Shown here piece after piece: positions 4,807 to 9,708 of a DNA stretch of 64,000 nt. This stretch comes from Nitrospirota bacterium (GTDB lineage Bacteria > Nitrospirota > UBA9217), in NCBI GenBank assembly GCA_963796285.1, contig CAWCKW010000012.1:1440001-1504000 (forward strand), in the 5' to 3' direction. Within the stretch, counting starts at the first letter, position 1. Each line of letters starts with the position of its first letter. Below the pieces are notes generated by a model, which worked only from the letters and a program-made list of their open reading frames with translations, did not search any database and was not told the DNA's origin. A program made the translations under genes and the position numbers.

Positions 4807-5964
4807 CTATAGCATTGATTCCACCATCTTCCTGAAGTATCGGCAGTTATCCTCCAGGTCCGGGCCGTGCTTGAACAGCCCGCCGCCGATCAGAAATATC
4901 AGGTCCCGACCGTACGTCTCGAGCATTTCAGGGATGCGGTCAAGGCCCATGCCGCCGCCCGGTGCGGGGAAGATGGATTTAAGATGCCCCATGGGCTCGG
5001 ACGTTGCCTTGACGATCTCCCGGCACTCCTCGCGGCTAAATGAGAAGCGTCCGCCGAAGTTCGGGAAGATGGTCGCATCCGCGCCGGCCAGGCGCGCAAG
5101 CTGGCCGAAAATAACGCCGTGGGACATCCCATTGGCACTCGTCACAAAACTCCCTTGCAAAGCCGGATGCGTAAGGATCGGCAGCGCGATCGAGTCGTCA
5201 TCCGCCAGCTCCCGCATCAGATCAAAGCCGATCAATCCCGGCGCAACCATCAGACCGCCTGCTCCCGCGTCCTTTGCCATCCTGCCCCTCTTGACGACCT
5301 CGCTATGAGGAGCGGTAATATTTGCGACATAGATCGTCCGATGGCCGGTTTCCTTGGCCGCCCGCTGTACTGCCTCGGCACATCGCTTTACCCGTTCCTC
5401 GAAAGGCGAACAGCCTTGATTGGTCAGGCCGTGGTCGTCCTTGATGATGTCCATGCCTCCCCGGGCGAGCTGGTATGCCAGGTCTGCAAGCTCCTGTGAC
5501 GAAAGACCCATGGGTTTGATCGCCGAAGAAAGCAGCGGCCGCTTCGGTATGTTCAGGAGGCTTCTTAGCCCCTCCCTGCCAAAGCGCGGCCCTTTGAAGC
5601 GGCGCAGAAGCGATTCAGGCAGATCAAGATGTTCGACGCGGATGCCCGGCTTGATGCTGCTGTTGCCGAACACGACATTCAGGAACTGCGTCAGTTCGCC
5701 AGCAGCGATCTCAACTGCATAGCTGATGACTGCCCTGAAATGTTTACGATCAAGCGGTTCAAACAGTTCGATCCGGCCAAAGACATGGTCCCTGATGATC
5801 CCTTCCGGCACTTCGTCCGCGGGGAATTCCACCGTCTGTTCGATACAGATGTCCTCTGCCCTGGCACGCGCTTCCTTCTCACTGCCGGTAAGGCGGTATG
5901 TCACGGAGAAGCGGTCGCCGGAAAAAAGAGCGGCCTGGGTGCAGGTCTTCTGGATAATAGACAT
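4807..5964 (-). CDS. RuBisCO-like protein (form IV), Rhodospirillum rubrum MTRu-1P isomerase type
   Basis: EQTVEFP, FGNSS, IKPMGL, IKDDHG (KDDH rather than RuBisCO KDDE), IFPNFGGRF, PAPGGG, LIGGG; 385 aa. Confidence 0.88.
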   Translation of the reverse strand: MSIIQKTCTQAALFSGDRFSVTYRLTGSEKEARARAEDICIEQTVEFPADEVPEGIIRDHVFGRIELFEPLDRKHFRAVISYAVEIAAGELTQFLNVVFGNSSIKPGIRVEHLDLPESLLRRFKGPRFGREGLRSLLNIPKRPLLSSAIKPMGLSSQELADLAYQLARGGMDIIKDDHGLTNQGCSPFEERVKRCAEAVQRAAKETGHRTIYVANITAPHSEVVKRGRMAKDAGAGGLMVAPGLIGFDLMRELADDDSIALPILTHPALQGSFVTSANGMSHGVIFGQLARLAGADATIFPNFGGRFSFSREECREIVKATSEPMGHLKSIFPAPGGGMGLDRIPEMLETYGRDLIFLIGGGLFKHGPDLEDNCRYFRKMVESML

Positions 5965-6032
5965 CGGGAGAAGATGTGCTCCTTTGATATTATTGGACGA
6001 ATACAGTTAAAGAACCAGAACTAAACCAGTTC

Positions 6033-6114
6033 TAACCGCCGAGACGCGGAGGCGCAGAGAAAATCTTTCTTTCAATCTGCATTTCTCCCGCAATTCTCCG
6101 CGCCTCAGCGGTAA
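6033..6114. repeat. Intergenic inverted repeat (9-bp-period family)
   Basis: taaccgccgagacgcggaggcgcagaga ... ctccgcgcctcagcggtaa. Confidence 0.65.
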
Positions 6115-6121
6115 ATTATAA

Positions 6122-7642
6122 CTACCAGTCAATGGGGAAATAATCCTTGAGAAATTTTCCGCACCAGTGCCTCCCTGTTAAGATCCCGTCAAAGAAGGGA
6201 TCGCAGACCCTGGCAGCTCCATCCACAATATCCAGGGGAGGTTGGAAATCATGTACTGTTTGCTTGTAATGGGAAAGCTCCGCGGGATCTTCATCAGTGA
6301 CCCAGCCCGTATCAACGGCATTCATAAAGATACCGTCTTTGGCAAGGTCTTCCGCCGAGGTATGGGTCATCATATTCAGGGCCGCTTTCGCCATATTCGT
6401 ATGAGGATGACGCGCGTCTTTTTTGAATCTGAAAAACTTTCCTTCCATGGCAGTTACGTTGACAATATGCTTTTGGCCGGTATGAGCACGCCGCATCAGC
6501 GATGCCAATCTATTGCACAGCACAAAGGGAGCCACGGCATTCACCAGCTGTACTTCAAGCATTTCCGTTGTCGGGATCTCTCCCAACCGCAAACGCCAGC
6601 TGTTTGTCTTGCGCAGATCCACCTGTTGAAGGTCGGCGTCCAGTTGCCCTGTGGGGAATATCTCCTCAGCCGCGAGCGAGCTGTCGTGACTGTACGGGAT
6701 CTGTGACAGCTGGGCCGATTCGCGTAAACCTATGCCGGGGTTCTGATTATGCCATGCAACAGGAAGGTCAGAGTTTTCGTTCTGGCAAATAGATTGGATT
6801 TGCTTCTTGCACTCCTCATGGTCAGCGAGAAGCCTCTGCGCCTCCCTGGACAATCCGCTGAAACCGACTTTTTCATGTTCCATCAGATGGGCATAAAAAC
6901 CCGGAGGCCGCCTCACCGTCTGAGCGGCATTATTGATCAGGATATCAAGACGCCCGTATCTCTGTTCCAGATAACTGGTAAATAGCTCAACACTGGGGAT
7001 ATGCCTCAGATCAAGACCGTGAATATGCAGCCTGTCTCCCCATACAGCATAGCCCTCTTCTTTGGAATATCTGATAGCCGCGTCAACGGGAAAACGTGTC
7101 GTGGCGATCACCGTTGCCCCGGCGCGCAGCAACATCAGGGTCGCCTGGTAGCCGATCTTAAGCCGTGCGCCGGTGATGAATGCAACCTGCCCCTGAAGCG
7201 ATGCGGACTGAAACCGTTTCCGGTAATTCAGGTCGCCGCATTTCTTGCACATCGTGTCATAGAAATGATGCAGCTGGGTATACTCTTCTTTGCATATATA
7301 GCAATTGCGCGGCGAATCCAGTTTTTCACTCTTTTGTTTGGCCTCAGATGAATGACCTTCGATCTGCTCCGGCGCAACAAAGGTTGCATCAGCACGCGCA
7401 CTCCTGATCCCCGTGCTGTTTCTGGCGCGCCGATTATTCTCAAGAGTTGACAGCCTCTTTGTTTTGCTTGCCGTCTTGTTTCTCTTTTTCCGTTCCGCTC
7501 TGTCGGGACGGGATATATCGCCGGTCGCTTTCAGAAGGGCGATTCGCTGTTCTTCTGGAAGGTTAGCAAGCTGGTCCGTATCTTTTACGAGATTTGCGAG
7601 AAGGGCAATGCAATTTTCAATTTCTTCGGAAGAGTGTTTCAT
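6122..7642 (-). CDS. Extended SDR-family NAD(P)-dependent oxidoreductase with N-terminal CxxC..CxxC
   Basis: [37 protein letters not shown]...CKKC. Confidence 0.8.
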
Positions 7643-7707
7643 TAGACAATATTCTCTATTCTCATTTATAAGGTTTCTCATTCCGCACGCAAAAATCCGA
7701 AATGGCT

Positions 7708-9708
7708 CTAAAGCGCCTCAGCCTTTGCCATGCTGTGCACCGCTGTAATATGCGCTTCTGCAAGCTCGTCTTCGGAGACATTGAACCGCTGACCAATCAT
7801 TGCTTCAACTTCCCTGATCAACGAAAGCGCATCCATCTTGTGTTCCTTCAGGAGATACTGTTTGCTCGCCCCGTGGCTGAAGGTATCCTGGAGGCCGATC
7901 CTGACGAGTTTCTTCGCAATGCCTGCTTCCGCCATCTTCTCGGCGATGATGGAACCCAGGCCGCCGACGATGGTGTGGTTCTCCATGGTGATCACGCCAA
8001 AGCGTGACTTGCGCTATCGCATCGAGAACAGTCTGGTCATTGAATGGTTTTAAGTGTTGAGATATGCATATGCTGGATAGACAGGCCGCGCTTCTTGAGC
8101 ACCTGTATTGCCCGCATGGCCTCCTCGGTCATGATGCCGCTTGACAGGACCGTTATGTCGTTCCCTTCGGACAACACCCGCGCCTTGCCGAATTTCATCG
8201 GGCTGTCGAAGAGCCGCGGGATCTCGCCCCGGAGCATTCTCACATACACCGGCCCGTTGATTTTTTCGATCACTTCGAGGACGGATCTCTACCTCGGTCG
8301 CGTCCCCGCACTCGAGCACGGTCATGTTCGGCAAGGCGCGCATGACCGCGATGTCCTCGATGGCCTGATGGGTCGCCCCGCCCGGCGTGGTAATGCCCGG
8401 AAGGAAGCCGATCATCCGGACCGGCAGATTGGGATACGCGACGGACATGGCGATCTGGTCATACGCGCGGCGGTAGATAAAGACCGCGAAGGTATGCACA
8501 AAGGGAATGAACCCTTCCCGCGCAAGGCCCGCGGCAAAGCTCAGCATGTTCTGCTCGGCAATGCCCATGGACAGGAAGCGGTCGGGATAGGTGATCGCGG
8601 AACAGGTCGATCTCCGTGGAGCTCGTGAGGTCGGCGGAGAGCACCAGCACTTTTGGTTTGTCCGCTGCCCATCGTACGAGGTTCTTTGCATGGACCCTGG
8701 TAACGATCTCAGGACCTGATGGAGGCTTTTGCGGGGGCCTTCTCCTTCTTTTGTCTCAGGCGGACACTCCCTGCCGCATAGCTCCGCATAGGCGGCCACA
8801 TAGCGGCCCTTTTCCTCTTCGCTCGTAAAGCGGACATAGTGCATCTTCGGGGCGCGGGCTTCAGGACGTCGAGTCCCCGTGCCGCATCGGTGTCGCACAG
8901 CACAACAACGGGCCGTCCATCAGGAGTAAGCGATCCGGCATCTGCCAGACGCTTGATGTCGTGCCCATTCACCCGGAGCACCCGGCAGCCGAAGGATTCA
9001 AGCCTCTTGTCCAGCGGTTCGATGTCCATGACCGTGCACATCTTGCCGTCGCACTGGAACCCGTTCACATCAACGTAGATGATCACGTTGTCGAGCATGT
9101 GGATGCGAAAGGGCCTGGAGCGCCTCCCAGGTCTGGCCGATCTGGAACTCGCCATCGGACATGAAGATGAACACCCTGCCCTTCTCTTCCTTTCGTTTTC
9201 TTGCCATGGCAATGCCGGCTGCCTGGCTGATGCCCTGTCCCAGAGAACCGGTCATGGTCTCCATGCCCGGCGAGTGCTCCGCGCCGATCATCTCGACGGA
9301 GCTTCCATCCTTATTGAACTGGAGAAGCCCTTCCTCGGCCATGCGGCCGGTCTCGATCAGGGTCGCGTACAGGACCAGGGCGTACTGGGCCGGAGAGAGG
9401 AAGAAGCGGTCGTGGTCCGGGCCCGGGCCGTTAAATGAAGCGCCGGTAAAGTAATCCGGGTTGTCCGGGCCAGGCACGCCGGGAAAGGGCCGGGGCACGA
9501 GCGGAGTCTCGATCGTGCCGAGGTCCATGACCTTCACATAGAGCGTTGCCAGGATCTCGGCTGATGAACAGGCCTGGGAGAGATATCCTCCGTTGTTCCT
9601 GATCGTATGCTCCAGCACGCGACGCCGGATGCCTGCTGCCACGCGCCTGACCTCGTCCTGCCAGGTCGATGATTCCTTTTTTTTATCTGCTGACTTCATT
9701 GCTCTCAC
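7708..9708 (-). CDS. Divergent transketolase-family ThDP enzyme; N- and C-domains apparently fused; several frameshifts
   Basis: [64 protein letters not shown] spread over ORFs 9070..9708, 8709..9212, 8459..8650, 8050..8898, 8037..8273, 7708..7995. No start codon precedes the C-domain frame. Confidence 0.8.

Follow-up and report, generated by a model that had tools for sequence, protein, structure and literature searches.

The window, a 64,000-nucleotide stretch of a Nitrospirota bacterium (lineage UBA9217; assembly GCA_963796285.1, contig CAWCKW010000012.1, positions 1,440,001 to 1,504,000), carries on its minus strand the three co-oriented genes that an original prediction had picked out: a RuBisCO-like protein (RLP), a short-chain dehydrogenase/reductase (SDR) and a transketolase-like gene (TKL), all at the positions listed in the table. 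Transcription runs in the order cupin, GalT/HIT-like, TKL, SDR, RLP and gyrB, in a genome of 13 contigs and 3.58 Mb that is 96% complete by marker genes. The TKL and the RLP form a conserved two-gene cassette found across phyla, and we put at roughly 55% the probability that the pair is an oxygen-independent branch of the salvage of 5'-methylthioadenosine (MTA) as well as 5'-deoxyadenosine, by-products of S-adenosylmethionine (SAM).

Coordinates of the genes and other features discussed (window positions unless a locus or contig handle precedes them)
Feature	Position	Strand	Basis or remark
RLP, 385 aa, intact	4807-5964	-	Pfam RuBisCO_large PF00016, E 7.4e-32
Long SDR, 519 aa	6122-7681	-	Pfam adh_short and adh_short_C2
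TKL, ~665 codons, 8 frame segments	~7708-9708	-	Pfam fragments, ungapped tblastn, DNA alignment
TKL, Transketolase_N	9070-9708		Pfam
TKL, Transket_pyr	8050-8898		Pfam
TKL, Transketolase_C	7708-7995		Pfam
Intact TKL orthologue	L013:6739-8745		single open reading frame
GalT/HIT-like protein (DUF4921), 369 aa, neighbour only	9903-11012	-	Pfam, NCBIfam
Small cupin open reading frame, neighbour only	11099-11671	-	weak Cupin_2 match, E 5e-4
RLP fragment, 50 residues	G020:C10:131447-131596		74% identical to the window RLP
CMD-family gene	L015:5207-5668		
CMD-family gene	L019:15504-15965		
Class II aldolase-SDR fusion	L099:3013-4983		
Class II aldolase-SDR fusion	L114:~8300-10010	-	
Split transketolase C subunit	G000:C7:13406-14335		
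Split transketolase C subunit	G000:C13:246656-247582		
trpE-like	998-2486		frameshift-split
gyrB C-terminus	2730-4709		frameshift-split
sirC and bamD	11817-13179		frameshift-split
dxs	L024:7718-9653		frameshift-split
MTAP	L023:15326-16015		frameshift-split
cysN	13677-14900		
cysD	14910-15728		
Type I nucleotide pyrophosphatase/phosphodiesterase	16190-17293		
Radical_SAM match	20949-21440		
Radical_SAM match	28082-28483		
Radical_SAM match	29398-29913		
Radical_SAM match	35026-35523		
Radical_SAM match	54163-54669		

The TKL and the RLP travel together. In a set of 41 related genomes, 18 hold an RLP orthologue (at least 58% identity), exactly these 18 also hold a TKL orthologue (at least 62%), and the remaining 23 have neither. 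As the 41 genomes are kin, this co-occurrence does not amount to a statistical test. The TKL stop codon overlaps the RLP start at locus L013, and the two genes overlap or lie at most 600 bp apart in G005, G008, G010, G003, G025, G034 and G013, and by coordinates also in G001 and G004. The gap widens to 3.8 kb in G018 and 5.5 kb in G023, where a CMD-family gene and unrelated genes fill it, and to about 19 kb in G020.

The same arrangement extends far beyond the phylum. An intact TKL compared with one genome per species matched at least 600 stretches, of which at least 589 encode a relative, and the wider-locus counts given here refer to the best 80 TKL loci among them. These come from at least 15 phyla, including Nitrospirota, Chloroflexota, Spirochaetota, Bacillota, Acidobacteriota, Pseudomonadota, Myxococcota, Actinomycetota, Elusimicrobiota, Planctomycetota, Omnitrophota, NC10, Calditrichota and Synergistota, and most of their record titles name what we take to be anaerobe groups (Nitrospirota, Anaerolineae, Spirochaetota, Syntrophomonadaceae, NC10, Elusimicrobiota). 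An RLP lies downstream of the TKL on the same strand in 59 of the 80 loci, and in 43 of the 52 not labelled Nitrospirota; wherever both genes are present, the TKL comes before the RLP. Of the 21 loci lacking an RLP, seven stop at a contig edge and two stop right after an SDR. When the 752 open reading frames of the 80 loci were clustered, the TKL was found in 79 loci and the RLP, as called from open reading frames, in 56, while the next cluster reached only eight. The TKL is a single fused protein in the family of the window and mostly split elsewhere, its N and C subunits then measuring about 305 and 335 aa. Furthermore, one cluster representative, P0279, is a natural RLP-TKL fusion, whose transketolase part is 47% identical to the TKL and contains the GGYLSQ motif. 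The predicted conservation of the linkage is thus borne out, both jointly in the relatives and across phyla, and the conserved unit is a two-gene cassette, TKL then RLP.

Two further observations concern the spacing of the pair. In G020, a short RLP fragment lies 3 kb from the TKL, which, with the full RLP 19 kb away, suggests that a rearrangement separated the two genes. Several Nitrospirota have, directly downstream of the TKL and before the RLP, a gene of the CMD family (AhpD-like) that encodes about 150 aa (L015 and L019, also L040, L043, L048, L050, L054 and L058) and may serve the module as an accessory specific to the lineage.

The other genes of the window's cluster are local additions, since they are not conserved beside the pair. 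The SDR, which the original prediction had counted as part of the module, separates TKL and RLP in just two of the loci of 17 relatives plus the window, namely in the window and in one relative (genome G006, locus L017), and it lies downstream of the TKL in two of the 80 wider loci (L042, L049). It is a lineage-specific insertion outside the conserved module and was rejected as a pathway member. Its adh_short matches cover residues 165-256 and 366-474, with an insert of about 100 aa inside the Rossmann domain and a Cys-rich N-terminal region (CxxC...CxxC); comparison with the PDB gave generic SDR matches only, at 48 bits or less, and in the Atlas it falls in clusters of uncharacterised oxidoreductases of 519-535 aa, most commonly from Bacteroidota and Pseudomonadota. 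The TKL-RLP loci of the relatives contain neither the GalT-like gene nor the cupin. Across the 80 loci the former adjoins the TKL in two (L037, L057) and the latter in one (L057); the GalT/HIT-like gene was rejected as a pathway member on this ground.

The motifs quoted for the RLP in the original prediction are all present in its translation: EQTVEFP at residues 42-48, KDDHG inside 169-180, IFPNFGGRF inside 294-310 and PAPGGG inside 332-340. Its best match among solved structures is 3QFW (256 bits, E 5.2e-75), which we take to be RLP1 of Rhodopseudomonas palustris. An Alicyclobacillus-type RLP (193 bits) and the YkrW-type enolases (160-165 bits) follow behind, so that the suggested resemblance to RLPs of the Rhodospirillum rubrum (DeepYkr) type stands at the level of these comparisons. 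A 2026 paper confirms no more than that 3QFW is an RLP structure. DeepYkr RLPs convert 5-methylthioribulose-1-phosphate to 1-methylthio-xylulose-5-phosphate and 1-methylthio-ribulose-5-phosphate in a 3:1 ratio, after which a cupin yields 1-deoxy-xylulose-5-phosphate (DXP), as described in PMC5893883. The RLP of the window reaches neither of the YkrW/MtnW models of NCBIfam (NF007095, 235.5 bits against a cut-off of 409; TIGR03332, 185 against 513.6) nor the OiaX model (92 against 700). A search of 1.84 billion cluster representatives returned 2221 matches at E ≤0.001, and 17 of the 26 long ones are RLP-cupin fusions (50%-identity representatives P0260, P0269, P0271, P0277, P0278, P0283, P0284, P0304, P0312, P0318, P0321, P0324, P0328, P0337, P0347, P0362 and P0367). 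Another representative, P0289 (726 aa), has an inositol-monophosphatase-family domain fused in front of its RLP domain.

To place the RLP we used a FastTree phylogeny of 187 rows, comprising the window RLP, 50 of 56 transketolase-adjacent RLPs (six partial sequences dropped) and 136 of 150 representatives (those under 340 aa, 14 in all, were left out), and built without named R. rubrum or R. palustris sequences. All transketolase-adjacent RLPs fall in one half of the tree (support 96), 41 of them in a single clade of 45 (support 99), and a cupin-fused clade is nested near them. In the second half are 11 cupin fusions together with the P0346 clade; P0346 itself scores 381 bits to 3QFW. Contrary to expectation, the RLP therefore appears not to share the subclade of the solved DeepYkr structure and probably belongs to a separate one. 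Another representative, P0342, had no PDB match at E 1e-60, and the members of the clusters of 10 tree representatives carry only names of metagenome-assembled genomes, with no R. rubrum or R. palustris record among them. A comparison of 51 transketolase-adjacent RLPs with 17 fused to cupins and 15 rows from the 3QFW clade showed the motifs EQxVExP, NxxFGNxS, KPxG, IKDDHGL, HPA, GAD..PN.GGRF and PxP(G/A)GG to be common to all. Because these signatures are the same in all tree groups, the RLP is, as far as its chemistry-defining motifs tell, DeepYkr-like, yet it appears to form a subclade of its own.

The TKL was judged on intact orthologues, in which the Pfam domains Transketolase_N, Transket_pyr and Transketolase_C are all present. 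It scores below the NCBIfam cut-offs both for transketolase (NF004559, 371.1 bits against 488) and for DXP synthase (TIGR00204, 191.1 against 465.95), and among solved structures it comes closest to the split transketolase of Carboxydothermus (PDB 6YAJ/6YAK) and to human transketolase (4KXU). The host genome has a canonical transketolase elsewhere, in a gnd-tkt-tal-zwf operon (889.1 bits), as well as a split one, and the TKL is 29-42% identical to these two paralogues. DXP synthase is encoded separately by dxs, in an N-terminal piece of 512.5 bits (cut-off 465.95) and a C-terminal piece of 346.9. Two places in the host assembly score identically for the C subunit of the split transketolase, which may reflect a duplicated contig end or assembly redundancy.

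Alignment of 71-76 TKL sequences from all phyla to Escherichia coli TktA, with residue numbers checked on the E. coli sequence, locates the divergence. Like transketolase, the TKL has the three-domain fold and the thiamine diphosphate (ThDP)/Mg motif, and it is split in most phyla; it keeps D155 (73/74), N185 (73/73), E411 (76/76) and H473 (76/76), together with S385, R520 and an R/K at 358+1. It differs in that H26 is replaced by Y (71/71), H66 by Q (52 of 71, H in the other 19), H461 by L (74/76) and D469 by G (75/76). Furthermore, the H100 column holds I in 72 of 72 sequences and the H261 column F, with a conserved H four residues earlier, although the alignment is uncertain at both columns. 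In transketolase the replaced residues contact the C1-OH and C3-OH, bind phosphate and recognise the C4-OH; in the E. coli enzyme H461 binds the phosphate and D469 the C4-OH. As the original prediction had it, the enzyme is a divergent transketolase paralogue and not the housekeeping one. Databases name the TKL only 'transketolase' and the RLP 'ribulose-bisphosphate carboxylase large chain', with a few RLPs labelled 'S-methyl-5-thioribulose 1-phosphate isomerase'.

In this assembly the TKL is present, as predicted, yet it is not a single intact gene. Ungapped tblastn with an intact orthologue resolves it into eight segments in alternating frames, with its Pfam domains on three different open reading frames; gapped tblastn was set aside because it read through stops in one frame and left the frameshifts unresolved. 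DNA alignment to three intact orthologues identifies seven one-base insertions and a one-base deletion, near 9106, 8856, 8755, 8717, 8597, 8287, 8055 and 8013. The orthologues in relatives are single open reading frames of 660-705 aa, and the segments here remain 67-98% identical to the intact orthologue, with no apparent relaxed substitution. We compared 13 proteins from cleaner relatives with the host genome and counted seven frame switches in the TKL, two each in bamD and sirC and one each in hisS, pgm and gyrB, and none in the RLP, SDR, histidine kinase, NtrC-type regulator, PEMT-like gene, metallophosphoesterase and enolase. The density of eight indels in 2 kb, against about 0.5 per kb in other genes, is unusually high even beside these other broken genes. 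Consensus error is nevertheless the simplest explanation, since frameshifts also affect essential genes in this assembly. Indeed, contigs from short reads of four public metagenome runs, with 90-99% likeness to the window, have an open frame at about seven of the eight places (no extra base, or no missing base, at 8012, 8054, 8286/8287, 8594, 8724, 8859 and 9104). As these contigs derive from related populations, they speak for an open frame in those populations and not necessarily in this strain.

Other genes are split by frameshifts too: the gyrB C-terminus, a trpE-like gene, sirC and bamD in the window, and dxs and MTAP elsewhere in the genome. Frameshift density is locally high at 7700-13200, and gene calls across this genome require frame-aware checking.

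Several neighbours of the pair point to SAM by-products. MtnA adjoins the pair in seven of the 80 loci (L062, L076, L081, L099, L110, L111, L114), while L081 and L111 have an APH-family kinase of MtnK size beside it, and L081 an ABC permease as well. Cys/Met pyridoxal phosphate (PLP) enzymes of PF01053 occur beside the pair in four loci (L038, L062, L066, L068), CysK-like PALP genes in four spirochaete loci, and an Rrf2 regulator (cluster c50; Pfam was run on the L070 member) in L066 and L070. Class II aldolase-SDR fusions were seen near the pair in three loci (L099, L114, L096), adjoining MtnA and the pair in one actinobacterial locus and two others; because they do so, the aldolase route and the RLP-TKL route can share one cluster.

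The host genome encodes both MtnA (438 bits against a cut-off of 279) and MTA phosphorylase (MTAP; 286 against 274.85), as the proposed salvage would need. The expected linkage of mtnA, mtnK and mtnP to the pair held in part: mtnA and an mtnK-like kinase lie beside it in several distant genomes, and here mtnA and mtnP are some 85-95 kb away. Searches of the host genome found neither an Aldolase_II (MtnB or Ald2) nor an acireductone dioxygenase (ARD, MtnD), nor any cupin resembling those fused to RLPs, and they found one strong PF01053 enzyme. The genome also has 45 Radical_SAM matches, five of them inside the window, although frameshift splitting may inflate some counts. MtnA was present in all five distant carriers tested. 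Among the kin genomes, a class II aldolase occurs in 6 of the 18 with the pair and in 15 of the 23 without it, and within the window's own genus in none of eight with the pair and in the single one without; the pair and the aldolase are in this sense partly complementary.

The interpretation builds on what is observed, namely the genes and their linkage, co-occurrence and natural fusion, the altered TKL signature, and the presence here of MtnA and MTAP without the alternative downstream enzymes; from these we infer the substrates, the enzyme order and the fate of the C2 unit. In the proposed route, MTA phosphorylase, or a nucleosidase together with an MtnK-like kinase, would give 5-methylthioribose-1-phosphate, which MtnA would isomerise to 5-methylthioribulose-1-phosphate. 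The RLP would then carry out a 1,3-isomerisation, as its relatives do, to form 1-methylthio-xylulose-5-phosphate, or 1-deoxy-xylulose-5-phosphate when the starting material is 5'-deoxyadenosine. This candidate TKL substrate would have the D-threo configuration that transketolase donors need and would differ from xylulose-5-phosphate at C1 only. The TKL would take the place of the cupin methylsulfurylase of Rhodospirillum, attacking at C2 and cleaving the C2-C3 bond to release glyceraldehyde-3-phosphate (GAP) and leave a ThDP-bound C2 fragment bearing the methylthio or methyl group. Because no further gene is conserved beside the pair, the fragment would more likely be freed as a small central metabolite than transferred to an acceptor sugar.

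Phosphoketolase, a ThDP enzyme, converts xylulose-5-phosphate to GAP and then forms acetyl-ThDP by eliminating the beta substituent from its C2-ThDP intermediate. By analogy of mechanism only, as the TKL has no sequence membership in that family, the TKL could be a 'methylthio-phosphoketolase'-like lyase, a version of the route that we regard as speculative and on balance unlikely. Here the leaving group would be methanethiolate and not water: the ThDP-bound 1-hydroxy-2-(methylthio)ethyl fragment left after release of GAP would expel it to form acetyl-ThDP, which would leave as acetate, acetyl-phosphate or acetyl-CoA, and the free methanethiol might pass to a PF01053 sulfhydrylase. From 5'-deoxyadenosine, 1-deoxy-xylulose-5-phosphate would yield GAP and acetaldehyde. 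Such a reaction would explain the absence of further conserved genes beside the pair, the recurrence of Cys/Met PLP enzymes near it, and a hydrophobic C1 pocket (Tyr, Ile). If it operates, two genes would complete an oxygen-free methionine salvage, and all five ribose carbons would regain central metabolism.

Several results weigh against the salvage assignment. No mtn gene is adjacent in most loci (73 of 80), and MtnA and MTAP are each above cut-off in 37 of the 41 relatives, so that these genes, near-universal in the phylum with or without the pair, are uninformative as a discriminator. Six of the 18 genomes with the pair also hold a class II aldolase, and in 12 TKL loci a downstream stretch of 1.5 kb or more holds no RLP. 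In the tree, the transketolase-adjacent RLPs and the clade nearest 3QFW occupy opposite halves, and for this reason the reaction of the former could differ from the characterised one. The TKL substitutions reach beyond the C1 pocket, to H461 and D469, and the enzyme accordingly fits a plain 1-methylthio-xylulose-5-phosphate donor less neatly. Finally, the TKL reading frame is interrupted eight times in this window.

The poor fit of H461 and D469 to the simple picture keeps alive a reversed order, in which the TKL would act on the MtnA product (5-methylthioribulose-1-phosphate or 5-deoxyribulose-1-phosphate), or make the RLP substrate, and the RLP would use the TKL product. Given the presumed roles of these residues, H461L and D469G would alter the phosphate-end and C4-OH channel in a way that could suit a hydrophobic methylthio tail; the TKL precedes the RLP in the operon at every locus, and the RLP subclade appears distinct from the characterised one. 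We nonetheless consider this order improbable: gene order says little of reaction order, the TKL keeps R520, S385 and the R/K at 358+1, and the RLP keeps all signature motifs of the cupin-fused RLPs, whose known substrate is the MtnA product (PMC5893883). The same interruptions of the TKL frame, dense in 2 kb and absent from the flanking RLP and SDR, could instead mark a decaying pseudogene in a genome where the module no longer functions. The frameshifts in gyrB, hisS, bamD and pgm, the well-kept identity of the TKL segments, and the related-population contigs free of the indel at most of the places, even with strain identity not assured, make such decay quite unlikely.

A different concern is whether the pair belongs to SAM by-products at all, or to an unrelated sugar-phosphate pathway (deoxy, branched, or of a rare pentose or tetrose) comparable to those for D-apiose. 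The many loci without an adjacent mtn gene, the non-discriminating presence of MtnA and MTAP, and the RpiR and GntR sugar-type regulators and ABC sugar-type permease of some loci would fit such a role. The D-apiose and apionate pathways also use an RLP (OiaX) and a transketolase (for apulose-4-phosphate) in sugar-acid catabolism, where the two belong to different routes. The D-apiose reading itself was rejected on the OiaX score of 92 against 700. A sugar-phosphate role in general has, in our estimate, a small probability, as the closest solved RLP is 3QFW, the recurring neighbours are MtnA, the MtnK-like kinase, PF01053 and CysK-like enzymes and the Rrf2 regulator, and no recurring set of sugar kinase, dehydrogenase and isomerase was found in the 80 loci. 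That the TKL is an ordinary transketolase beside the RLP by chance would agree with its database name and three-domain architecture, and is very unlikely in view of the synteny in 59 of 80 loci across phyla, the co-occurrence in 18 of 18 genomes, the RLP-TKL fusion, the score below the NCBIfam cut-off, the family-wide replacement of invariant residues and the canonical transketolase elsewhere in the genome.

The preferred route, salvage through the RLP and then the TKL, resembles two known systems. It shares with the MTA-isoprenoid shunt of R. rubrum and R. palustris (MtnP, MtnA, DeepYkr RLP and cupin methylsulfurylase) the encoded MTAP and MtnA and an RLP of the same broad type, with 3QFW as best match and the KDDHGL and GGRF motifs in common. 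It differs in the methylsulfurylase-type cupin, of which none lies beside the RLP, is fused to it or turned up in the genome. A ThDP enzyme is coupled in its stead, the RLP groups in a separate subclade, and the expected products would be triose phosphate and a C2 unit, not DXP. No recurrent cupin was found among the 80 TKL loci, and the cupin of the window, considered as a methylsulfurylase, was rejected as unrelated to the cupins of the 17 RLP-cupin fusion proteins (best blastp E 0.19), a comparison that did not extend to the R. rubrum enzyme. The dihydroxyacetone phosphate (DHAP) shunt (MtnP, or MtnN and MtnK, then MtnA and the class II aldolase Ald2) is likewise oxygen-independent and starts from the MtnA product; both routes would give a triose phosphate and a C2 sulfur or deoxy fragment, and their distributions are partly complementary as judged by the class II aldolase. 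The proposed route would differ in cleaving after RLP isomerisation, by ThDP chemistry, and in releasing GAP and not DHAP, and no Aldolase_II was found in the host genome.

We found no description linking an RLP and a transketolase in SAM by-product salvage in the literature covered, which did not extend to Erb 2012 and Tabita 2007, possibly on RLP neighbourhoods. A term search of a 2018 review of methionine salvage and its paralogues returned neither 'transketolase' nor 'thiamine', and 'transketolase' has no occurrence in the available portions of the DHAP-shunt papers of 2023-2025 and of a 2026 review. Together, these observations make the RLP and TKL a genuine and widespread module that is linked to MtnA-type metabolism and apparently has not been described before. 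Three fates of 5-methylthioribulose-1-phosphate are described in the literature covered, through the oxygen-requiring universal pathway, the cupin-dependent isoprenoid shunt and the aldolase-dependent DHAP shunt; the RLP and ThDP-enzyme cassette would, if the salvage assignment is correct, be a fourth. In that case a large RLP clade and a transketolase subfamily, at present labelled only 'RuBisCO large chain' and 'transketolase', would gain a function, and the cassette would change metabolic reconstructions of sulfur and SAM recycling for anoxic sediments, peat and groundwater and add a new reaction type to ThDP enzymology.

Upstream of the module, cysN, cysD and a gene for a type I nucleotide pyrophosphatase/phosphodiesterase are found close to the GalT/HIT-like DUF4921 gene, a neighbourhood that may be a small cluster for adenylyl-sulfate or nucleotide-sugar handling.

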